From assembly GCA_965197415.1 (NCBI GenBank), contig OZ240207.1:2858957-2922956 (forward strand): a stretch of 64,000 nucleotides of DNA. Direction: 5' to 3'. The stretch is from Dehalococcoidia bacterium. Lineage in GTDB: Bacteria; Chloroflexota; Dehalococcoidia; Lucifugimonadales; JAGWBF01. Shown one piece after another: positions 20,441 through 49,844 of this stretch. Made by a program: the position numbers and the translations under genes. Numbering within the stretch: the stretch's first letter is position 1; each line of letters begins with the position of its first letter. The notes under the pieces were generated by a model. It made no database searches. It had not been told where the DNA came from and saw only the letters and a program-made list of their open reading frames with translations.

Positions 20441-20569
20441 TACCCCCACCCTAACCCTCCCCCTCGAAGGGGGAGGGGATATGCTTTCTCGCTCGTTGGC
20501 GCAGGCAACGCGACGAAAATAAACTGCGACTGCTCCTTCCCCCTCAGGGGGAAGGTTGGGATGGGGGTA
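20441..20569. mobile_element. 129-bp MITE-like element: two inverted copies of the GC-rich hairpin unit flanking a 54-bp core
   Basis: Left arm TACCCCCACCCTAACCCTCCCCCTCGAAGGGGGAGGGGA (20441-20479). Right arm TCCTTCCCCCTCAGGGGGAAGGTTGGGATGGGGGTA (20534-20569). The arms are imperfect reverse complements. Confidence 0.55.
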
Positions 20570-25163: not shown

Positions 25164-25190
25164 CCAGGGTCTACAGTAAAGCTGGGGCAG

Positions 25191-25225
25191 CCCTCACCCC
25201 AACACTCTCCCAGAGGGAGAGGGGG
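25191..25225 (-). repeat. Single copy (reverse orientation) of the GC-rich hairpin unit
   Basis: CCCTCACCCCAACACTCTCCCAGAGGGAGAGGGGG is the reverse complement of the CCCTCTCCC-N3-GGGAGAG..GGGGTGAGGG pattern. Confidence 0.6.
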
Positions 25226-32877: not shown

Positions 32878-33555
32878 ATGACCAGACGAAAGGGATCAGT
32901 CATATCGGTGGTTTTCGCCGACGTTGACCCGGAAATGGACGATGAATGGAACCGGTGGTACAACGAGGAGCACATACCCGACCTGCTTAAGATGCCCGGA
33001 TACCTGGACGCCGCCCGGTATGAAGCTGTAAGAGGCTCACCCAGGTATCTGGCCATCTATGAACATGAGGATTTCGGCGTGTTCTCCACGCAGGAGCGAA
33101 ACGCCTACCGCGACAATCCTCCGGAGTGGACCCGGAGCATCCAGGAGCGAGGGGGAGCGCGTCTCACCATCCGCAACGTCTACACCCGAATCTACCCTGA
33201 AACAGAAGAGCCGGAAGCACTGGGCCGACCCATGCCTGCGGCGGTCCAGGTGGGGCGTATGGAAGTTCCCGCGGAAATCGAGGAAAAGTACAACCACTAC
33301 TACGACAACATACGTCTGCCCCAGAACACCGCCCTTCCCGGCTGCCTGTACGCCAGGCGGTTCCATTGCATAGAGGGGGGTGGGCCCAAGTATCTGACCC
33401 TCTACGAGTTCGAGCACGAGAACGTCTCGCAGACCATAGCATGGAACGAGTGGCGTAAGACTGACACCATGAACGACTACATTGGGGGCGACTACGACCA
33501 CGCTCCCGGCTCGCCGGGCGTGTACCGCCGTATCTTCCCTCAGCGATCTTTTTAA
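32878..33555 (+). CDS. Hypothetical protein with two tandem ferredoxin-like (EthD/DUF4286-like) half-domains
   Basis: Internal repeat: 'DDEWNRWYNEEHIPDLLKMPGYLDAARYE...YLAIYEHED' vs 'EEKYNHYYDNIRLPQNTALPGCLYARRFH...YLTLYEFEH'. SD AGGAGG. The family assignment is tentative. Confidence 0.5.
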   Translation: MTRRKGSVISVVFADVDPEMDDEWNRWYNEEHIPDLLKMPGYLDAARYEAVRGSPRYLAIYEHEDFGVFSTQERNAYRDNPPEWTRSIQERGGARLTIRNVYTRIYPETEEPEALGRPMPAAVQVGRMEVPAEIEEKYNHYYDNIRLPQNTALPGCLYARRFHCIEGGGPKYLTLYEFEHENVSQTIAWNEWRKTDTMNDYIGGDYDHAPGSPGVYRRIFPQRSF

Positions 33556-33629
33556 CCCTCACCCCAACCCTCTCCCAGCGGGAGAGGGGGTATGTTCCTT
33601 CCCCCAACGGGAAACGCTAGGATGGGGGG
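33556..33629. repeat. Two adjacent copies (reverse then forward, degenerate) of the GC-rich hairpin unit
   Basis: CCCTCACCCCAACCCTCTCCCAGCGGGAGAGGGGG (33556-33590) and CCTTCCCCCAACGGGAAACGCTAGGATGGGGGG (33597-33629). They start right after the stop codon at 33553-33555. Confidence 0.6.
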
Positions 33630-36036: not shown

Positions 36037-37155
36037 ATGGTTGCGTTGCCTGACACTTGCAAAGTGGCCGCCCTCGTGGGCGTACATCAACCCATGGAGA
36101 TCATGGAAGTCCCGATTCCCAAAGAGATGGAGTACGGGTCGATTATCGTCAAGACCGCCTCCGCCACCATCTGCGGGAGCGACGTCCACTACTGGGAGGG
36201 TGAGTCCACCACCGCTCCGAAAGAGTTCCCGCGCATACTGGGACACGAGATGACCGGGCATATAGCCAGGATGGGCCCGGGCGTAACCCACGACTCGGTG
36301 GGCCAGCCCCTGAGCGAAGGCGACCGCATCATATGGACCCACGGGTTCTGCGGCCAGTGCCATTACTGCACCGTGGAAAACCAGTACACGCTTTGCACCA
36401 ACCGGCGAGGTTACATGTCACCGTTATGCACCGAATATCCGTATTTGGTCGGTGGATTCGCCGAATACTGCTACGTATACCCCACTTCCGGCAGGCTCAA
36501 GGTCCCAGACAGTGTGTCCGATGACTTGGCGTCCGCCGCGGCCTGCGCCCTGCGGACGGTGGTCCACGGGTTTGACCGCCTGGGGCGCATCGAGAACCGG
36601 CACACCGTCGCAATCCAGGGCAGCGGCCCTCTGGGCCTCTTCTCCTTGACCCAGGCGCTGACGGCCGGAGCCAGGAAGGTCATTGTCATTGGAGGCCCGC
36701 CGGGCAGGCTGGAGATAGCCAGGAAGTGGGGCGCCGACTATACGCTGGACGTGGGTGAACTCAACGCCCAGGAACGGCACGAACGCATCATGGACATCAC
36801 GGGTGGACAAGGGCCGGACGTGGTGGTCGAGGTGTCGGGCGCCAAGACAGCCTTCCCCGAGGGTCTGCAGATGGTCCGGGGGACTGGCCGCTACCTGATC
36901 ATCGGGCAAATCGGCCCTCACGAGGTCACTTTCAGGCCCGCGGACATCGTTCGCAAGCACATGCGCATCGTTTCCACCCAGTCGGCTAGCGTGGCTCACT
37001 ACTGGAAGGCGTTGCAGTTCCTCCAGGACAACGCCGAGAACTTCACGTTCGAGGACATGATTACCAGCCATACGCCTCTGGCGGGCATCAACGAGGCGAT
37101 GGAACGCATGAAGTCCTTCCAGGACCTTAAGGCCGCTCTGACCTTCCCCGACTGA
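36037..37155 (+). CDS. Zn-dependent alcohol dehydrogenase (MDR superfamily)
   Basis: 'ICGSDVHYWEGE', 'GHEMTG', 'CGQCHYCTVENQYTLC' and a 'GSGPLG' Rossmann motif. Confidence 0.9.
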   Translation: MVALPDTCKVAALVGVHQPMEIMEVPIPKEMEYGSIIVKTASATICGSDVHYWEGESTTAPKEFPRILGHEMTGHIARMGPGVTHDSVGQPLSEGDRIIWTHGFCGQCHYCTVENQYTLCTNRRGYMSPLCTEYPYLVGGFAEYCYVYPTSGRLKVPDSVSDDLASAAACALRTVVHGFDRLGRIENRHTVAIQGSGPLGLFSLTQALTAGARKVIVIGGPPGRLEIARKWGADYTLDVGELNAQERHERIMDITGGQGPDVVVEVSGAKTAFPEGLQMVRGTGRYLIIGQIGPHEVTFRPADIVRKHMRIVSTQSASVAHYWKALQFLQDNAENFTFEDMITSHTPLAGINEAMERMKSFQDLKAALTFPD

Positions 37156-37835
37156 TGGGACGCGTTCCCTTTCCCCCTCTCCCCCTGGGAGAGGGCTGGG
37201 GTGAGGGCCGGAAGGCGCTGCTGGGCACAACCAACCCCGCCAAGCTGGAACGCTTGCGGTGGCTGCTTGAGGGTCTTCCTATTGAGACCGTGGGCCCGTC
37301 GTCCCTGGGTTTGTCGGGGTTGGACATCGAGGAAGCGGGGGCGACCCACGAGGAAAACGCTCGTCTCAAAGCCGACGCTTGGTCCCAAGCGGCTGGCTTA
37401 CCGGCCCTGGCAAGCGACGGCGGCTTGGTAATACCAGCGTTGGGCGATAACTGGTTGAGCTTACACACCCGTCGCTTTGCTGGCGAGGACGCTGACGACG
37501 ATGCCCGCATACGCCGGCTGCTTGAGCTAATGGAGCCCTACAGCGAAGAGGACCGCAAAGGTGTATGGGTCGAATCAGTAGCCTTGGCGGGAGGCGGGCT
37601 GCCCACCGTTTCCTGGCTGATGGAAGGTCCTGCCGGATACATTCTGGAAGCGCCCGACGACGCTCACCGAATACCCGGGTTCTGGTTCTTCTCGTTGTGG
37701 TTCCTTCCAGAGCTGGGCAAGACCTACGCCGCCGCCCTTGACGGCCCGGAAGCGGACCTGGATTCCATAGGCGACCATTGGGCCCGCCTCAAGTCCAAGG
37801 TGCGGGACTATGTCACGAGACTTTCGGGCTCGTGA
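37155..37835 (+). CDS. Ham1/RdgB-like non-canonical purine NTP pyrophosphatase with repeat-derived N-terminal extension
   Basis: 'LLGTTNPAKLERL', 'EEAGATHEENARLKA' and 'ALASDGGLVIPAL' loosely match Ham1 motifs. The only in-frame ATG (37155, overlapping the upstream stop as TGATG) places the repeat unit in codons 7-18. Confidence 0.5.
   Translation: MGRVPFPPLPLGEGWGEGRKALLGTTNPAKLERLRWLLEGLPIETVGPSSLGLSGLDIEEAGATHEENARLKADAWSQAAGLPALASDGGLVIPALGDNWLSLHTRRFAGEDADDDARIRRLLELMEPYSEEDRKGVWVESVALAGGGLPTVSWLMEGPAGYILEAPDDAHRIPGFWFFSLWFLPELGKTYAAALDGPEADLDSIGDHWARLKSKVRDYVTRLSGS
37175..37207 (+). repeat. Single forward copy of the GC-rich hairpin unit, inside the 5' end of the Ham1-like ORF
   Basis: CCCTCTCCCCCTGGGAGAGGGCTGGGGTGAGGG, translated as PLPLGEGWGEG. 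Confidence 0.7.
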
Positions 37836-42185: not shown

Positions 42186-44771
42186 TTGTTGGGGAGACTG
42201 CTCTCTAGTGGTCTGTGGAGCGCATTTCAGGTGCGCCCTACACGCCTTATGTTGTCGCTGCTTGCTCTGTTGGTGGTAAGCTTGCTGTTGGTCGCGGCCT
42301 GCAACGGCGATGCCAGGTCCACCGCTACCCCTGAACCAACCGACGAAGCGCCCACCGTCCAGCCTACTCCTAGAGCTACATCCACGCCCCGACCCACGAA
42401 CACTCCGGTTCCCACGTCTACGCCGACCGTGGCTCCCAGGACGCCCACCGCCACCCCTACTATAGCGCCCACTCCGCCTCCCCCTACGCCAACGCTGCCA
42501 CCGCCCCCAACGTCAACGCCGCCTCCAACACCAACACTGGCTCCGACGCCAACCCCGACGCCGGCGCTGCCGCCACAGCGCGCCCACAGCGAGGGACTTG
42601 AGATCCAGTTGACTTCACCGATGGGGGATTTGACGCTGTCTCAAGGGACGGTGTCGGTGACCGGTCTAACTTCCCCCAATGCTGTAGTGAGCGTCAACGG
42701 TTTGATTGCTGACGTCGATGACGAGGGAAATTTCTCAATCGAAAACATTCCGCTCGATGAAGGCCCCAACCTGCTGGAAATCATAGCGTCGGACCTCTCT
42801 GGGGCCGTCGCATACGAGACTCTGGCTGTGGCGGTCACCGGGGGCGACGCTGTCTTCGGCGTCGTAAGCCGGATAGACGCTGTCGGGCAAGGACTCACGA
42901 GGATTGTCGTGGACTCACCGGACGGAAGCAGCATTGCGGTCCAAGCCACTCTTTTTACCGGTGTGCTGATTCCGGGAAGCGCCTCCGCCGTGATTGGCGA
43001 CATCCGCATAGGAGATTCTATAGTTGCCACCGACTCCGTCGACGCCGGAGTTGCCTCTGCAGAGCTCATAATGGTTAAGCCGTCGTCTCCCGTCTCCCAT
43101 GCCCACATCGTAGCGGCCCTGGTGGGGGTTTCACAAACCGGAGATGCCCAACTGATGGACGCCCAGGGGAACCTGGTGACAGTGGCGGTCTCACCTACGG
43201 TTGGCGCCGCACTCCAACCCGCCGGCATAGTAACGGCTGTGCTCAGCCAGGACCTGAAGACAGGTGTGCTGGCCCTTAGCGGAGCCGAGATTTCCAGCCA
43301 CAGCATGGGCAGGCTCAAGACTGCTTTGGAAGAGGCTGCAAAACGGGGAGCTACAGACAACGAGACTCGGTTGGGACACAGGATGCGGCAGGCTGCCACC
43401 GGGTCCCTGACTACCTCTATGGAGCTTATATCCAGAGTCGACCCCAACGTTCGGTTCATATTCCAGCAGTCCTTCAACACACTCCTGACCGCGTTGTCTC
43501 AGACTCTGGCAGACCTGGGTCTCGGCCCTGCGCTCGTGAGAGGCGGAGGGGTCATTCAGGGGACTTCAGCCGCTGGAGACTCAGTCGTAGTTGCTCCAGA
43601 GATTGGTCCAGAATTCATCTTGAATCTCCCCGGCGACACTGAACTGACCATCTTTGGAGAGCCTGCGGTGGTCGATGACTTGGAGCCCGGTCAGAGAACG
43701 GTTTTCCTATACGACCCATCCGACACATCCGTTTCCAGCTTGGACGTGCTGTTCCCTCGGCTCCCCGCGGCGGCGGCGGAAGCGCTGCGAGGCCAGGCTA
43801 TGGCGGGAGAATTGCAAGGCGTCCTGGCGTCCCCACCTGTCGCCGGTTCGGTGGCGTTGAGGTTGGACACCGGAGAGCAGGTGACGTTCCCGCTCTCAGA
43901 CGACGTTGTAGTCAGTGTATTCGGGCTTCCCGCCGGTCTGGACGCCCTTCAGGTCGGGGCAAATGTCAAGGTCCTCTACGATGATGACCTGGGCGCTGTC
44001 GTGGCCATAGACGCTGTCATAGCCAACCAGACCTTCATAAGCGGCGTGGTGGAGGCCATCGTGCCTAAGTTCCGGGTGGGGCTCGTCATTCCGGGCGCCA
44101 GCGAAGAAGGAAACTTGATAGTCATCACCCCTCAGGGGGAGCGCGTTGTCCTCAAGATAACGGAAGGGACGATCGTGGAACGGGACAGCGTCGTGCTCAA
44201 CATAGGCGCTCCCAAGTTGGGAGACCTGGTGCGCCCCACCAGCAGCTATGACCCGGCCACGAGGAACTTGATCAAGCTCTCGGTCAGGTCTCCCGAACTC
44301 AGCGGGACCGTTCGAGGGAAGTCGGAAAGCCAGCCCGGCAATAGGACTCTGACCCTGTCCACCGACTCTCTGAAGCTCGTCAGCTTCAAGTTGCTCGACT
44401 ACACCATGCTGCTTGTCAGGGGCGACCAGGGCGACGAGGAAGCCGCCTTCGACGACCTGGAAGAAGGTTCCAGGGTGGTGTACGCCCGATACGAACCCTT
44501 CACAGGAGGTTTGTCCAAGCTGCTGTTGGACCCGCCGCGAACGAGATCGGCCAGCGGCGCCATAGCGTTCCTGGACAAAGAGAACGGCGTCATTTCGGTG
44601 ACTACGCAGGTAGGGGCGACCATAAGGCTGCTCATCCCCAACAAGCCGGGTATCGTAACCGTGAACGGCCAACCAGGCTCCTTCAGGGACCTGACGGAGA
44701 CCATGCTCATCGACGAGGTCCACTACGACAGGAACAACATCGTAGTCCTTCTTAACGCCTCCGGGGCATAG
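42186..44771 (+). CDS. Large predicted lipoprotein with Pro/Thr-rich linker, Ig-like domain and repeated beta-barrel (DUF5666-like) modules
   Basis: Signal plus lipobox 'LLLVAAC', a ~90-aa PT-rich tract, and repeated 'G.V..ID....L.V....G..V.V....T.I' units. Start is TTG 42186 or ATG 42249. Confidence 0.7.
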   Translation: MLGRLLSSGLWSAFQVRPTRLMLSLLALLVVSLLLVAACNGDARSTATPEPTDEAPTVQPTPRATSTPRPTNTPVPTSTPTVAPRTPTATPTIAPTPPPPTPTLPPPPTSTPPPTPTLAPTPTPTPALPPQRAHSEGLEIQLTSPMGDLTLSQGTVSVTGLTSPNAVVSVNGLIADVDDEGNFSIENIPLDEGPNLLEIIASDLSGAVAYETLAVAVTGGDAVFGVVSRIDAVGQGLTRIVVDSPDGSSIAVQATLFTGVLIPGSASAVIGDIRIGDSIVATDSVDAGVASAELIMVKPSSPVSHAHIVAALVGVSQTGDAQLMDAQGNLVTVAVSPTVGAALQPAGIVTAVLSQDLKTGVLALSGAEISSHSMGRLKTALEEAAKRGATDNETRLGHRMRQAATGSLTTSMELISRVDPNVRFIFQQSFNTLLTALSQTLADLGLGPALVRGGGVIQGTSAAGDSVVVAPEIGPEFILNLPGDTELTIFGEPAVVDDLEPGQRTVFLYDPSDTSVSSLDVLFPRLPAAAAEALRGQAMAGELQGVLASPPVAGSVALRLDTGEQVTFPLSDDVVVSVFGLPAGLDALQVGANVKVLYDDDLGAVVAIDAVIANQTFISGVVEAIVPKFRVGLVIPGASEEGNLIVITPQGERVVLKITEGTIVERDSVVLNIGAPKLGDLVRPTSSYDPATRNLIKLSVRSPELSGTVRGKSESQPGNRTLTLSTDSLKLVSFKLLDYTMLLVRGDQGDEEAAFDDLEEGSRVVYARYEPFTGGLSKLLLDPPRTRSASGAIAFLDKENGVISVTTQVGATIRLLIPNKPGIVTVNGQPGSFRDLTETMLIDEVHYDRNNIVVLLNASGA

Positions 44772-45251: not shown

Positions 45252-45461
45252 ATGGTTACTCTAGAACGCATACAAGCTATTGAGACTCGTGTAGAGGTTC
45301 TGGAGAAAAGTACAGCTTCTCTTACAGACCCTCTAACAAGGGTGCTGGACCTAACTGGACGGTTTATTGCTCATGCCGAAGCCATTGATAAGCGCATGGA
45401 CAGGATGGAAGCAACCCTCAATCAAGTGTTGGAGCATGTCCAAGGACGCACCACTTACTAA
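45252..45461 (+). CDS. Hypothetical small coiled-coil protein (69 aa) in the AT-richer island
   Basis: Its ATG overlaps the stop of the upstream frame (TAATG). Heptad-like 'IQAIETRVEVLEK'. No homology evidence. Confidence 0.3.
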   Translation: MVTLERIQAIETRVEVLEKSTASLTDPLTRVLDLTGRFIAHAEAIDKRMDRMEATLNQVLEHVQGRTTY

Positions 45462-45768
45462 CCCGTAAGTTCCCTGTATCTAAGTCGCTTCCCTTCCATC
45501 CCTGAATCATACCCCGTATCTGTTCCACAGTGTCCTTGGGCCGTTCATTGTGCCTTCCGGCAAATTCGGAGGCGTACCGCCCTACATGCTTGTGACTAAT
45601 GTGGTGATACGTTCCAGTTATCCCACGATTCAGCATCGCCCAGAAACTCTCAATCCCGTTTGTCGTAGCCATGCCCTTCACGTATTCTCCAGCATTGTAT
45701 ATAAGTCCCTTTCTTTTGTGTCCCCTTCTACCGAAAGGGACAGGTTGAAGGCCCCTAACGGGCGGCAC
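45418..45768 (-). pseudogene. IS1595-family (ISXO2-like DDE) transposase remnant, N-terminally truncated and internally deleted
   Basis: 'TNGIESFWAMLNRGITGTYHHISHKHVGRYASEFAGRHNER' matches the conserved C-terminal block of IS1595 transposases. The ORF is only 116 aa, and 'GRRGHKRKG' joins directly to the 'AGEYVKG' region. Confidence 0.65.
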
Positions 45769-45897: not shown

Positions 45898-48048
45898 ATG
45901 CCCATTCTCCTCCGACTGGCAGGATACGCCCTGCGCATCTCTCCCTTCCGCCTCGTCCTGGCATACGTCTGCCTCATAGGCTCCACCCTCCTTTCTCTGG
46001 CGATTCCTCGTCTGCTCGGCACCGCAATTGACAAAGTCCTGGAGAGCGGCGATTCCGGTGTGCTGATATGGCTGGCCGCAACAGTGCTGGTCATAAGCCT
46101 GGCCGCCGGAGCTTTCCACTACGGGCAGACCTACTTGTCCGAGTACATCTCCCAGCACGTGGCCTACCGGCTTCGCCACAACTTCCTGGCCCGCCTCCAA
46201 GCCCTCAGCTACGCCTTCCACGATCGGCACAAGACCGGAGACCTGATGTCCAGGGCCGCCGCCGACGTGGAGAGCATCCGCTGGTTCGTGTCTTTCGGTC
46301 TCATATACTCCGTCCACATAATCACGCTGCTTGTGGCCGTGTCGGTCTTGCTCATCACCATATCCTGGGACCTGGGCCTGCTCGGCTTGGCGGCCGTTCC
46401 AGTGGCCGTGAACATCGCCGTCGCCATGACCCGCAGGTTCAGGCGGATGTGGCGGGAGGTGCAGGAAGACACCGGGCGCATGTCGACGGTCCTCCAGGAA
46501 AACCTGTCCGGGATGAGAGTCGTCAAGACTTTCGGCGCGGAGGAACGGCAGATGGAGAAGTTCGGCCAGGCCGCGACCGTCGTCTCCGAAAAGACCTTCG
46601 CCGTCAGCCGCCTTCACGCGGCAAACTCGTCCCTGCTGAACATGCTCTTTACCTTGGTGACCGCCCTGGTGGTCTGGTACGGCGGCACCAAGATCATCAA
46701 TGGCTACGATGCCGCCGCCGGCCTGTTCCTGGGACTGACTCCCGGCGAGCTTACCCAGTTCGTCCTCTACATGGGACTTCTGGTCTTCCCCATACGCATG
46801 TCCGGGTGGGTGGTCAACAACTTCGCCAGGGCCATAGCCGCCGGAACGCGCATCTTCTACGTCATCGACGCCCAATCCCCCGTCCAGGAGAAAGAAAACG
46901 CCCAGCACCTGGAGCGAGCCGAAGGCCGAGTCTCCTTCGAAGCCGTGCGCTTCCACTACGGCCCCCCACTCCCCTCTCCCCCCGCGGGAGAGGGCCAGGG
47001 TGAGGGGGCATCAGAACCCCAGCCCCACGGAGGTCAAACCCCAGACCCCCTCTCCCCCCGGGAGAGGGCCGGGGTGAGGGACGAGGAATCCATCCCCTCT
47101 CCCCTGGCGGGAGAGGGCCAGGGTGAGGGGGAACCAGACTCTCAAACCCCAGACCCCCTCTCCCCCCGGGAGAGGGCCGGGGTGAGGGAGAAGGAATCCA
47201 TCCCCTCTCCCCTCGCGGGAGAGGGTCAGGGTGAGGGGGAATCAGACTCTCAGACCGCAGACCCCCTCTCCCCCCGGGAGAGGGCCGGGGTGAGGGAGTC
47301 CCACCCCGAAGTCCTCCGGAACATAAACCTGACCATAGAACCCGGTCAACGAGTGGCGGTCCTGGGCGCGCCCGGAAGCGGCAAGAGCGCCATGGTGTCC
47401 CTTATTCCCCGGTTCTACGACGTAACATCCGGGCGAATCACCCTGGACAACGTGGACGTTCGAGACCTGAACCTGCGCAGCCTGCGAAGGAACGTGGCCA
47501 TCGTCCCCCAGGACGTGTTCCTGTTCGCCGCCACAATCAGGGAGAACATCGCCTACGGAGTGCCAAACGCCCCTCTGGAGGATGTGATAGAGGCGGCCAG
47601 GTCCGCCCAGATACACGAATTCATAGACAGCCTCCCGGACAAGTACGAGACCCTGGTGGGCGAGCGGGGAATCACCCTGTCCGGCGGCCAACGCCAGCGG
47701 GTCGCCCTTGCCCGCACGCTGCTGATGGACCCTCCCGTCCTCTTGCTGGACGACTCCACCTCCAGCGTCGACGTGGACACGGAGGCCCTGATACAGCGGG
47801 CCCTGGAAGAGGTGATGAAGGGCCGCACCACCATCGCAATCACCCACAGGATAAGCGCCGTCAGAAAAGCCGACCTCGTCCTTGTCATGGAGGGCGGCCG
47901 CATCGTGGAGAGGGGCACACACGACGAGCTGATGGCCCTGAACGGCCTCTACCGGGAGATATACAGGATTCAGCTGGAGATGGAAGGGGACCTGGCGGAC
48001 GGGACCTGGGCTGGGGACGGAGCTGACGGTCAGGGTCGTGCGCTATGA
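45898..48048 (+). CDS. ABC exporter permease/ATPase fusion (type I exporter half-transporter), degenerate-site subunit, with ~110-aa repeat insertion in the NBD
   Basis: 6-TM domain followed by the NBD: Walker A GAPGSGKS, signature [13 protein letters not shown], Walker B 'LLLDDSTS' (Asp in place of the catalytic Glu). 716 aa vs 599 aa for the partner. Confidence 0.9.
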   Translation: MPILLRLAGYALRISPFRLVLAYVCLIGSTLLSLAIPRLLGTAIDKVLESGDSGVLIWLAATVLVISLAAGAFHYGQTYLSEYISQHVAYRLRHNFLARLQALSYAFHDRHKTGDLMSRAAADVESIRWFVSFGLIYSVHIITLLVAVSVLLITISWDLGLLGLAAVPVAVNIAVAMTRRFRRMWREVQEDTGRMSTVLQENLSGMRVVKTFGAEERQMEKFGQAATVVSEKTFAVSRLHAANSSLLNMLFTLVTALVVWYGGTKIINGYDAAAGLFLGLTPGELTQFVLYMGLLVFPIRMSGWVVNNFARAIAAGTRIFYVIDAQSPVQEKENAQHLERAEGRVSFEAVRFHYGPPLPSPPAGEGQGEGASEPQPHGGQTPDPLSPRERAGVRDEESIPSPLAGEGQGEGEPDSQTPDPLSPRERAGVREKESIPSPLAGEGQGEGESDSQTADPLSPRERAGVRESHPEVLRNINLTIEPGQRVAVLGAPGSGKSAMVSLIPRFYDVTSGRITLDNVDVRDLNLRSLRRNVAIVPQDVFLFAATIRENIAYGVPNAPLEDVIEAARSAQIHEFIDSLPDKYETLVGERGITLSGGQRQRVALARTLLMDPPVLLLDDSTSSVDVDTEALIQRALEEVMKGRTTIAITHRISAVRKADLVLVMEGGRIVERGTHDELMALNGLYREIYRIQLEMEGDLADGTWAGDGADGQGRAL
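46971..47296 (+). repeat. Tandem array of six GC-rich hairpin units (three 108-bp super-repeats) inside the ABC exporter CDS
   Basis: Units start near 46971, 47045, 47094, 47152, 47202 and 47262. The A2-to-A3 period is 108 bp (47091 to 47199). The translated 36-aa repeat is 'ESIPSPLAGEGQGEGE.DSQT.DPLSPRERAGVR'. Confidence 0.9.
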
Positions 48049-49844
48049 GGGGCGGCAGCAGGGCAATCCATCGACGAATGGGCGCCGCGGCCGAGGCGGC
48101 GGAAAACCGGCAAGGCTACGACTACCGGCTGGTGTTCCGCATGATGGCCTTCGTCAAGCCCGACAAGGGCAAGGTCGTCGTCTCCGTGGCAGCCATGTTC
48201 ATCTTTTCCGGCACGGTGGTGGCGGCTCCCTGGCTCATCGAGAGGGCCATCGACAGCGTCGTTGCCCACCGGGACGCCAACGGCCTCCGCATGGCCGCCA
48301 TTCTCCTGGCCGTCAACGCCGTGGTCGGATACTTCAGCAACTTCATCCACCTGGCCACCATGTCCAGGGTCGGGCAAAACCTGCTGCTTAGGCTTCGAAG
48401 GGCCACCTTCGACCATCTCCAGCGGCTGTCCATGTCTTACTACGACCGTGCTGAGGTGGGCGGCATCATGTCGCGGGTCCAGAACGACGTCCAGCAGCTC
48501 CAGGAGTTCCTTTCCATATTCGTCCTGGCGTTGAGCGATCTGGTCGTCTTGGTGGGAATCGTAGTGGCTATGCTCCTGATGAATGCGGAACTGGCCTTGA
48601 TCACCTTCTCGGTAGTGCCTGTTCTGCTGGTCATGATGGTCTTATGGCAGCGATATGCCCTGCGGATCTTCATGCGAGTCCGTCGTGAAGTGGCCCACGT
48701 CAACTCGGAGCTTCAGGAGAACATTTCGGGAATTCGGGTGATTCAGAGTCTGGACCGGCAGGACGAGAACCTCAGTCAGTTCGACGACGCCAACCGGCGC
48801 TACGTGGACACCAGCATGAACGCCACGCGGCTGTCCGCGGCTCTGAACCCGTCGGTGGAGCTTGTTTCGGCGGTGTCCACCGCTTTGGTGATAATCTTCG
48901 GCGGACTCATGGTGTTGGACGGGAACATCGAGGTCGTGGGAGTGCTGGTGGCGTTCGCCCTGTACATCCAACGTTTCTTCGACCCCATACGCTCCCTCAC
49001 CATGCAGTACGGTCAACTCCAAAGGGCCGTGGCTTCTGGCCGGCACATCTTCGAGATTCTCGACACGGAGCCGTTGATACAGGACAGGCCTGGAGCGCCT
49101 CCTATGCCGCCTCTCATGGGAGAAGTGCGCTATGAAGGGGTCAGCTTTCACTACATCCCCGGAATGCCTGTGCTCAAGGACGTTGACCTCGTCATCCGAC
49201 CGGGAGAGAGGGTTGCGCTGGCTGGGCCGACAGGGGCGGGCAAAACTACGTTGGCCTCTCTTATTTCCCGCTTGTATGACGTAACCGACGGTCGTGTGCT
49301 AGTCGACGGCCATGACGTACGCGACGTAGCGAGGACCAGCCTGAACCACCAGGTCAGCGTAGTGAGCCAGGAGCCGTTTCTGTTTTCGGGCACGATCATG
49401 GACAACATCCGGTTCGCCAACCCTGACGCTTCCGATGAAGAGGTCATCCAGGCGTCCCGGGCGGTCGGCGCCCACGGGTTCATACAACAGCTGGAAGCGG
49501 GCTACGACGCTCAGGTCGAGGAGCGGGGGATCAACTTCAGCCCGGGCCAGCGACAGTTGATATCCCTGGCCAGGGCCCTGGTGGCCAAGCCGAAGATTGT
49601 AGTGCTGGATGAGGCCACGGCCTCCGTGGACTCAAAGACGGAGCTGATGGTCCAGAACGCGCTGGAACGAGTCCTGGAGGGAAGGACTTCCATCATCATC
49701 GCCCACCGCTTTTCGACCATCCGCAGGGCGGACCGTGTGGTTGTGATGGACCAGGGAAGCGTCGTCGAGCAGGGCAGTCACCAACAGCTCCTGGAGCAGA
49801 AGGGCCTCTATGCCCGCCTCTACGCCCTCAACGCCCAGGACTGA
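48045..49844 (+). CDS. ABC exporter permease/ATPase fusion, consensus-site subunit (heterodimer partner)
   Basis: Start overlaps the upstream stop (ATGA). Walker A GPTGAGKTT, Walker B 'VVLDEATASVD' with Glu, H-loop AHR, and an atypical signature 'FSPGQRQ'. Confidence 0.92.
   Translation: MRGGSRAIHRRMGAAAEAAENRQGYDYRLVFRMMAFVKPDKGKVVVSVAAMFIFSGTVVAAPWLIERAIDSVVAHRDANGLRMAAILLAVNAVVGYFSNFIHLATMSRVGQNLLLRLRRATFDHLQRLSMSYYDRAEVGGIMSRVQNDVQQLQEFLSIFVLALSDLVVLVGIVVAMLLMNAELALITFSVVPVLLVMMVLWQRYALRIFMRVRREVAHVNSELQENISGIRVIQSLDRQDENLSQFDDANRRYVDTSMNATRLSAALNPSVELVSAVSTALVIIFGGLMVLDGNIEVVGVLVAFALYIQRFFDPIRSLTMQYGQLQRAVASGRHIFEILDTEPLIQDRPGAPPMPPLMGEVRYEGVSFHYIPGMPVLKDVDLVIRPGERVALAGPTGAGKTTLASLISRLYDVTDGRVLVDGHDVRDVARTSLNHQVSVVSQEPFLFSGTIMDNIRFANPDASDEEVIQASRAVGAHGFIQQLEAGYDAQVEERGINFSPGQRQLISLARALVAKPKIVVLDEATASVDSKTELMVQNALERVLEGRTSIIIAHRFSTIRRADRVVVMDQGSVVEQGSHQQLLEQKGLYARLYALNAQD

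Follow-up and report, generated by a model that had tools for sequence, protein, structure and literature searches.

Here we describe a predicted ATP-binding cassette (ABC) exporter gene, from a lineage of uncultured Dehalococcoidia that has chromosomes of 3.1-3.2 Mb, whose nucleotide-binding domain (NBD) carries six in-frame copies of a short, GC-rich hairpin repeat. The gene lies on contig OZ240207.1, within a stretch of 64 kb that was analysed as a whole and that we call the window, and it encodes one half of an exporter whose other half is encoded by the overlapping downstream gene. The repeats form an insert in the loop between the first two strands of the domain, β1 and β2. Related strains differ at this position by whole repeat units, the coding sequence on both flanks is under purifying selection, and the unit belongs to a dispersed repeat family. 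The explanation that we regard as probable is that a unit resembling the repetitive extragenic palindromes (REPs) of bacteria was captured in frame in the β1-β2 loop, was expanded by recombination or slippage, and is tolerated as a passenger by an exporter that would remain functional.

The repeat array and its place in the protein

The repeat unit is about 35-36 bp long and has the form CCCTCTCCC-loop-GGGAGAGGG-NNN-GGGTGAGGG, with a 9-bp stem and a loop of 3-5 nt. Six copies lie in the host gene between positions 46972 and 47298 (Table 1), and were recovered by pattern and by profile searches. Shuffles that preserve the dinucleotide composition contained no match, so the six copies are not the product of chance. 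The original prediction, from which this analysis set out, had placed six such units in frame within the NBD of an ABC exporter, and the open reading frame (ORF) does run uninterrupted over 716 codons, the entire array included. Two kinds of unit alternate along the array: A units, with a loop of 5 nt, are translated as PSPLAGEGQGEG, and B units, with a loop of 3 nt, as DPLSPRERAGVRE in a frame shifted by one. The offset from A to B is not a multiple of three, whereas the offsets from A to A and from B to B are. A spacing of exactly 108 bp, or 36 codons, is found for A2-A3, as had been predicted, for B1-B2 and for B2-B3, against 123 bp for A1-A2. Tandem Repeats Finder (TRF) counts 2.5 copies of this 108-bp super-repeat, the two full copies being identical at 103 of 108 positions. 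In the antisense direction all three frames of a unit are open, and in the sense direction the third frame meets a TGA in GGGTGAGGG. Five of the six frames are stop-free and encode P/G-rich peptides, and both of the stop-free sense frames are in use in the array, which bears out the earlier statement that the two units are read in different frames while the ORF stays open throughout. Peptides predicted from the insert include IPSPLAGEGQGEGE and DPLSPRERAGVR, with FHYGPPLPSPPAGEGQGEGASEPQPHGGQTPDPLSPR as a junction peptide.

ABC_membrane and ABC_tran domains are found in both ORFs of the pair (residues 20-298 and 473-622 of the host protein), and the host stop codon and the partner start codon share an ATGA, in agreement with the earlier description of a 716-aa product co-translated with a partner of 599 aa. 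When the host protein was compared by HMMER with all solved structures, it aligned in two blocks, split at residues 355|472. The same gap measures 6 residues in ABCB19 against 116 here, and residues matching 356-471 were absent from every solved exporter in that comparison; at the equivalent point the partner has only FHYIPGMPVLKDV. The original prediction had put about 110 extra residues two positions past the A-loop aromatic residue and before Walker A, and the insert is indeed found there, its 116 residues including 21 P, 18 E, 17 G, 13 S and 9 R. It had also proposed that the structure of the domain be predicted with the insert in place. In the AlphaFold2 (AF2) model that we obtained from a 76-sequence alignment, confident strands at residues 345-352 and 473-480 flank the insert, and residues 358-467 have a predicted local distance difference test (pLDDT) score of about 33 and no secondary structure. 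In the model the insert accordingly leaves the β1-β2 hairpin as a disordered loop, 2 residues past the A-loop Tyr354 and about 20 residues before Walker A.

The motifs of the ATP sites differ between the two subunits. The catalytic glutamate after Walker B is replaced in the host only (VLLLDD, against IVVLDE in the partner), and both aspartates of this motif, D618 and D619, are invariant in 76 members of the family. The signature motif of the partner is FSPGQ in four orthologues (those of the window, L156, L157 and L158), and that of the host is LSGGQ. Replacement of the catalytic glutamate in one subunit only is a criterion for a degenerate ATP site (PMC5216877, PMC7544095), and the degenerate site of TM287/288 has been described in the same terms (PMC5216877). 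The top Foldseek matches of the host are TmrB (6rai_B, E 8e-36) and TM287 (4q4j_A/3qf4_A). In sequence searches with the partner, TM288 and TmrA are the best matches among single-chain half-transporters of about 600 aa, with full-length ABCB-type exporters ranking higher. Judged by sequence, the pair is a heterodimeric type IV ABC exporter with one predicted degenerate ATP site, like TM287/288, which is the pattern that the original prediction had recognised. It resembles TM287/288, TmrAB, BmrCD and Rv1273c/72c in its two adjacent half-transporter genes, in the Walker B aspartate of one subunit and the deviant signature of the other, and in its best folds, TmrB and TM287. It differs from these heterodimers in that their solved members have no residues corresponding to 356-471 between the A-loop and β2.

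Table 1. Features of the exporter pair, the repeat array and the dispersed repeat copies, in window coordinates
Feature	Position	Strand	Remarks
Host ABC half-transporter gene	45898..48048	+	716 aa; TM287/TmrB-like subunit bearing degenerate-site Walker motifs
Strand β1 ending in A-loop aromatic residue (VRFHY, Y354)	46945..46959	+	Y354 nearly invariant in family alignment; AF2 strand 345-352
Insert, residues 356-471	46963..47310	+	P/E/G/S/R-rich; no counterpart in solved ABC exporters; predicted disordered
Unit A1	46972..47007	+	translated as PSPPAGEGQGEG
Tandem array of 108-bp (36-codon) super-repeat, 2.5 copies	47034..47298	+	TRF score 481, 95% matches, 0 indels
Unit B1	47046..47081	+	translated as DPLSPRERAGVRD, the other open frame
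Unit A2	47095..47131	+	pattern and profile search
Unit B2	47154..47190	+	pattern and profile search
Unit A3	47203..47239	+	pattern and profile search
Unit B3	47262..47298	+	pattern and profile search
Walker A, GAPGSGKS	47365..47388	+	G490, G493, G495 and K496 invariant in alignment
Host signature LSGGQ, canonical	47677..47691	+	contributes to consensus site
Walker B VLLLDD, Asp replacing catalytic Glu	47737..47754	+	D618 and D619 invariant in 76 homologues; pattern as in TM287
Partner half-transporter gene	48045..49844	+	599 aa; TM288/TmrA-like; signature FSPGQ 49536-49550; Walker B IVVLDE 49596-49613
Dispersed variant copy	20447..20477	-	about 25 nt past stop of NHL-repeat gene
Dispersed copy	25190..25225	-	between convergent GmrSD_C and P450 genes
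Dispersed copy	33555..33590	-	begins at last stop-codon base of gene 32878..33555
Dispersed copy	37172..37207	+	17 nt past stop of alcohol dehydrogenase (ADH) gene; within 5' end of Ham1-like ORF 37155..37835

Variation among relatives and the state of the gene

A comparison with orthologous exporters had been suggested as a check on the original prediction. Relatives that are 80-92% identical hold differing arrays at the identical site, with 0 to 5 units, and more than 20 relatives that were assembled independently keep the frame open across the site. No unit is present in P0014 (84% identical), P0018 and P0041; one is present in P0009 and P0010; two or three A units together with a GEGxSGEG micro-repeat occur in P0003-P0007; A-B-A-B arrays are found in P0001 and in the first copy in L001, and a B-A-B-A-B array in P0002. 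More than 20 distinct architectures can be read through in frame, and the nearest of them, that of P0001, equals the array of the window minus exactly one 108-bp super-repeat. Measured against three orthologues, the ratio of nonsynonymous to synonymous substitution rates (dN/dS) is 0.11-0.17 upstream of the insert, in the transmembrane domain, and 0.07-0.13 in the NBD downstream, from which it follows that the downstream NBD is conserved in the same frame. The host gene is full length and intact through Walker A, signature, Walker B and H-loop, and the partner in the window is 96-97% identical to the partners in L001 and L002 and 92% identical to that in L003.

Three relatives, P0065, P0104 and P0110, terminate within the array, in the TGA frame. 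The first two lie on contigs labelled "2x", which we read as about 2x coverage, and on these the exporter and, in L035, also the partner are fragmented; P0110 is a copy that is also cut short by a transposase insertion. Since the frame-broken relatives are of these two kinds, the gene is not generally split here, and a split-gene reading, which would make it a pseudogene, was rejected. In P0020 the frame shifts inside the array and then returns. An exact-sequence look-up in a public collection found no record of the 716-aa protein, and a search of 5.8 billion proteins with the 115-aa insert peptide returned 3 weak matches, a result that low complexity and a database-size E-value make uninformative.

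Related genomes also hold second copies of the exporter (L001, 2763-4538 and 10001-12025; L033, 6001-7594). In the second copy homology ends inside the NBD, shortly before Walker B in L001 and earlier in L033, where transposase genes follow the break; the array of this copy differs from that of the intact one. P0016, P0017, P0019-P0021, P0035 and P0046 end in unrelated tails, some of which recur.

Inserts at the β1-β2 loop occur in more than one form. In two distant syntenic orthologues, L156 (P0036) and L157 (P0040), same-site inserts are built from the same repeat family, using other stems (CCTTCCCCC/GGGGGAAGG) and with some copies reversed (nhmmer E about 1e-4 to 2e-5). Independent gains in these two are the simpler reading, because closer relatives exist without any unit. 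P0099 and P0106 have a different, unrelated low-complexity insert at the same site. The partners of L156 (6600-8465) and L157 (6013-7908) carry a 22-residue insert of their own at the equivalent β1-β2 loop, placed after FSYIP and before VLKGINL. In L156 the DNA of this partner insert contains a 10-bp perfect inverted repeat, GGGTCTCTGG...CCAGAGACCC, and the insert appears to derive from a different palindromic family. The loop is already long and variable in relatives that are free of units, the closest of which, L158, reads GLDEERGNGEAYPP. In P0012 there is an FYPERSGGA before the β1 region and a VHPDPAEG inside the loop, and in P0013 an HPELVEGP; these inserts look repeat-derived, and several repeat families may be captured in the exporter gene.

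The surroundings of the pair are shared by syntenic orthologues in the clade, in the order Glucodextran_B-like protein, exporter, partner, and then thiamine pyrophosphate (TPP)-enzyme genes. The upstream protein of 861 aa (42186-44771 in the window) has a long P/T-rich low-complexity N-terminus, with TRF arrays at 42486-42557, and a Glucodextran_B domain, and keeps synteny with the exporter pair across the clade. In the window the gap of 1.1 kb between this gene and the exporter holds a remnant of an IS1595-family transposase (45418-45768, minus strand) that covers no more than the final ~50 positions of the DDE_Tnp_IS1595 profile; in L002 and L003 the same two genes are directly adjacent.

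The unit outside the exporter

The original prediction had seen the same unit elsewhere in the window, and a profile search confirms it with ten copies in the 64 kb, the six in the host gene and four that are dispersed. All four dispersed copies lie at most ~100 nt past the stop codon of Pfam-supported genes (Table 1). The copy at 37172 falls within a Ham1-family ORF whose single in-frame start is an ATG overlapping the stop codon of the upstream ADH gene (TGATG). Translation from that ATG would turn the unit into residues ~6-18 (PFPPLPLGEGWGEG) of an extension at the N-terminus. The match to Pfam starts at residue 23, and this copy may be a second exonised unit in the window.

Being short, palindromic and located at 3' gene ends, the unit is REP-like. 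The original prediction had likened it to a MITE (miniature inverted-repeat transposable element), a label that we rejected: the unit is a single hairpin of ~35 bp plus a tail, it has no terminal inverted repeats, and the flanks of 96 copies show no conservation past one or two C's. Only 9 of these 96 copies have a GTAG or CGTC tag in the unit or in the 8 nt on either side of it. Rfam gave no match at the gathering threshold anywhere in the window, and neither the unit nor its peptides turned up in the literature that was searched.

At least 120 stretches of metagenome DNA contain the exact pattern, on contigs of 38-73% GC among the matches listed. Among the metagenome matches listed, 29% are spanned by long ORFs, against 62% of random positions; the unit is depleted in coding sequence, yet not excluded from it. 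In the plasmid database PLSDB the unit is present in 361 records at 86-97% identity, with hosts that include Variovorax, Azospirillum, Rhizobium, Polaromonas, enterobacteria, Aeromonas, Pseudomonas and the cyanobacteria Oscillatoria and Leptolyngbya. One group of these records comprises plasmids of ~39-40 kb from Klebsiella, Enterobacter, Aeromonas, Serratia and Pseudomonas. In p10265-KPC (L160, 1501-1534; replicon IncP,IncU according to PLSDB) the unit is intergenic and adjoins ISApu1/ISApu2 transposase genes.

Copies that are in frame and confirmed by Pfam were found in genes for a HemN-like radical S-adenosylmethionine (SAM) enzyme, a DEAD/DUF3516 helicase, a transporter of the major facilitator superfamily (MFS) and an Lhr helicase. 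The HemN-like gene (L060, 744-3125, minus strand) has an insert of ~265 residues that splits the domain after profile position 43, the match resuming at 44. The DEAD/DUF3516 domain is cut in two by a unit, and the Lhr helicase has two units in its C-terminal region. To judge by the translations, units also seem to be in frame within a DinG-like helicase and close to the N-terminus of a GcvPB-like protein; the Pfam matches there lie only downstream of the unit. On plasmid pPNAP01 of Polaromonas naphthalenivorans CJ2, a betaproteobacterium in culture (L159, 2501-2534), a unit is read in frame as LLPLPQGEDRGEG inside pglX, annotated in RefSeq as a BREX-2 methyltransferase. Exonisation is a trait of the repeat family and not of the exporter gene alone. 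The L060 insert follows the CxxxCxxC region and precedes the remainder of the domain; hairpin units flank it, and it consists of ~10 tandem repeats of ~25 residues (TAPSPCKGETFEPETVRAAxAATERDR), a far larger repeat-seeded expansion in a catalytic domain.

A wider proposal, which we put forward only tentatively, is that the unit represents an undescribed REP-like superfamily without GTAG/CGTC tags. The unit is present in Chloroflexota, Alpha-, Beta- and Gammaproteobacteria and Cyanobacteria, with a ~35-bp sequence that is nearly identical everywhere, and under this proposal it would be a general and continuing supplier of disordered loops to conserved enzymes (ABC NBD, radical SAM, helicases, MFS, PglX). 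The element would be unusually prone to exonisation because five of its six frames are stop-free. If this were true, the β1-β2 loop of the exporter would be a recurrent landing site, and the conservation of the unit in different phyla would point to a common machinery that mobilises or recognises it.

Origin of the insert, precedents and meaning

The course of events that we think probable would have begun in an ancestor of this Dehalococcoidia clade, in which the element inserted in frame into the DNA for the loop between β1 (Tyr354) and β2 of a TM287/TmrB-like NBD. The original event would have been the insertion of a single A unit, a state as in P0009 and P0010, and the B unit would have arrived, or been derived, later, in the sub-clade that includes the window. 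Unequal recombination or replication slippage between units would then have made the array grow and shrink, to 2.5 copies of the 108-bp A+B super-repeat in the window, and selection would remove variants that enter the TGA frame. The original prediction had spoken of expansion in codon-preserving steps, for which no special mechanism is needed, as recombination between units in the same frame keeps the frame. The product would be a hypervariable, intrinsically disordered, P/G/E/R-rich surface loop of ~116 residues, tolerated as a near-neutral passenger because a β-hairpin loop is structurally permissive.

Several points weigh against this account. No transposase or REP-associated tyrosine transposase (RAYT) was linked to the unit in the window and the short loci, which were the only DNA available for this. 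A target-site duplication was sought by comparing filled sites with the candidate empty site of L158 and none was identified, the L158 loop being too diverged from the filled sites for the junctions to be aligned; L158 could also be a decayed filled site and not an empty one. Many of the in-frame architectures come from truncated duplicate copies, and the frame is kept partly automatically because recombination joins same-frame units, so we downgraded these architectures and do not take them as proof of selection. The hypervariability could also reflect diversifying selection and not neutrality. Finally, the copy number of six is that of this assembly, and we infer from sequence both the translation of the insert and the function of the exporter.

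The original prediction had suggested a more specific reason for tolerance, namely that the ATP site of the decorated NBD is already non-hydrolytic. The family-invariant Walker B aspartate of the host and the FSPGQ signature of the partner fit this idea, as does the finding that all units of this family in the exporter pair fall in the degenerate-site subunit. It is weakened, however, by the partner of L156 and L157, which contributes the A-loop of the consensus site and has its own, apparently palindrome-derived insert at the equivalent loop, by the acceptance of the same repeat in catalytic domains of unrelated enzymes such as the split radical SAM domain, and by the length and variability of the loop in relatives without units. 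A permissive β-hairpin loop suffices to account for the tolerance, and we consider a role of the degenerate site unlikely. Another possibility is that the array is adaptive, either as a functional disordered loop with a regulatory or interaction role, or as a contingency locus that switches the exporter through frameshifts in C6/G5 runs or through copy number. An adaptive role would be in keeping with the wide differences in copy number among closely related strains, with the three relatives that stop inside the array and with P0020, which leaves the frame within the array and regains it; but P0065 and P0104 come from "2x" contigs with other fragmented genes, P0110 is also truncated by a transposase insertion, nothing in the insert is conserved beyond the repeat, relatives with 0 or 1 unit exist, and the presence of the same units in unrelated proteins argues against an exporter-specific function. 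An adaptive array thus seems to us improbable.

The units might also act at the level of RNA or DNA within the operon, by ribosome pausing or transcription attenuation, with their translation being incidental. They form stable hairpins (predicted energies of -19 to -30.5 kcal/mol for array units and dispersed copies, -30.5 for the A unit and -22.1 for the B unit), and the dispersed copies sit at 3' gene ends as terminators or mRNA-stabilising elements do. Yet no T-run follows the intragenic units, these are opposite in orientation to three of the four dispersed copies, Rfam has no match, and strong purifying selection acts on the NBD and on the overlapping partner downstream, which must therefore be expressed, so that we give this explanation little credence. 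Least probable of all, in our judgement, is that the array or its copy number was misassembled or that the gene is dead. Assembly is liable to collapse or expand repeats whose period is 108 bp, the exact protein is missing from the public collection that was consulted, and truncated duplicate copies of the gene occur in related genomes; against this, units recur at the same site in numerous assemblies made independently, the gene is full length with intact motifs and is coupled to an intact partner, and dN/dS is ~0.1.

The claim that nothing of this kind had been described before was wrong as far as the class is concerned. In-frame palindromic insertions have been known since the Rickettsia palindromic elements (RPEs; Ogata et al. 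2000, in the summaries of PMC10969869 and PMC3733652), and REPs inside genes are on record in several phyla, among them dimers and groups of units within known proteins (PMC10969869, PMC3733652, PMC3184786). As those summaries describe them, RPE-1, RPE-4 and RPE-6 are likewise dispersed palindromic repeats with copies between and within genes, in frame in conserved genes, where the added peptide is predicted to be compatible with the fold and function of the protein. The placement at permissive sites is alike (here a loop modelled as disordered, and other conserved genes). The unit is set apart from what is summarised of the RPEs by its size (~35 bp here, ~100-150 bp for RPE-1 and ~150 bp for RPEs in PMC10969869), by its lineage (Chloroflexota and not Rickettsia) and by its six-unit tandem array, which uses two frames and is polymorphic among strains; on lineage and unit size, membership in the RPEs is unlikely.

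The likeness to REPs, including the intragenic ones of the two described super-families that are defined by GTAG/CGTC tags (Di Nocera et al. 2013, PMC3733652), lies in the GC-rich stem-loop of 20-40 bp, in a location mostly downstream of coding regions, between convergent or co-directional genes, and in the occurrence of some intragenic copies, often as dimers or groups, encoding 20-30 residues (PMC3733652). The unit differs from them in its near lack of the tag, in that no link to a RAYT was established, in the tail GGGTGAGGG, which resembles a third half-stem, and in an array that here encodes ~110 residues. MITEs with ORF fusions (ERIC, BOX, Nezha and Coxiella QMITE; PMC3184786, PMC10969869) are also small, non-autonomous repeats that fuse in frame, but the unit has no terminal inverted repeats around its core, no identifiable target-site duplication, and a size below their usual 50-500 bp. 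In its workings the case resembles RPEs and intragenic REPs, but it fits into no named family. Its novelty lies in the host (an NBD from a heterodimeric exporter of the ABC type, in Dehalococcoidia), in how large the array is, in the reading of two frames, and in a dense natural allele series. The near-invariant, untagged 35-bp unit that crosses phyla and is repeatedly exonised is the more novel thread, though it is not established as undescribed.

The exporter family offers a natural insertion-tolerance experiment on the ABC ATPase fold, in which related strains carry from 0 to ~116 extra, predicted disordered residues while purifying selection persists. This singles out the β1-β2 hairpin as permissive, and tags or engineered insertions could be placed there. 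For genome annotation, P/G/E/R-rich low-complexity stretches in proteins of Chloroflexota and other organisms can be derived from repeats, and frame breaks in such stretches in low-coverage long-read assemblies should not be counted as pseudogenes. For the biology of the repeat itself, the spread of a 35-bp unit across phyla and its repeated in-frame capture are the part most worth following.

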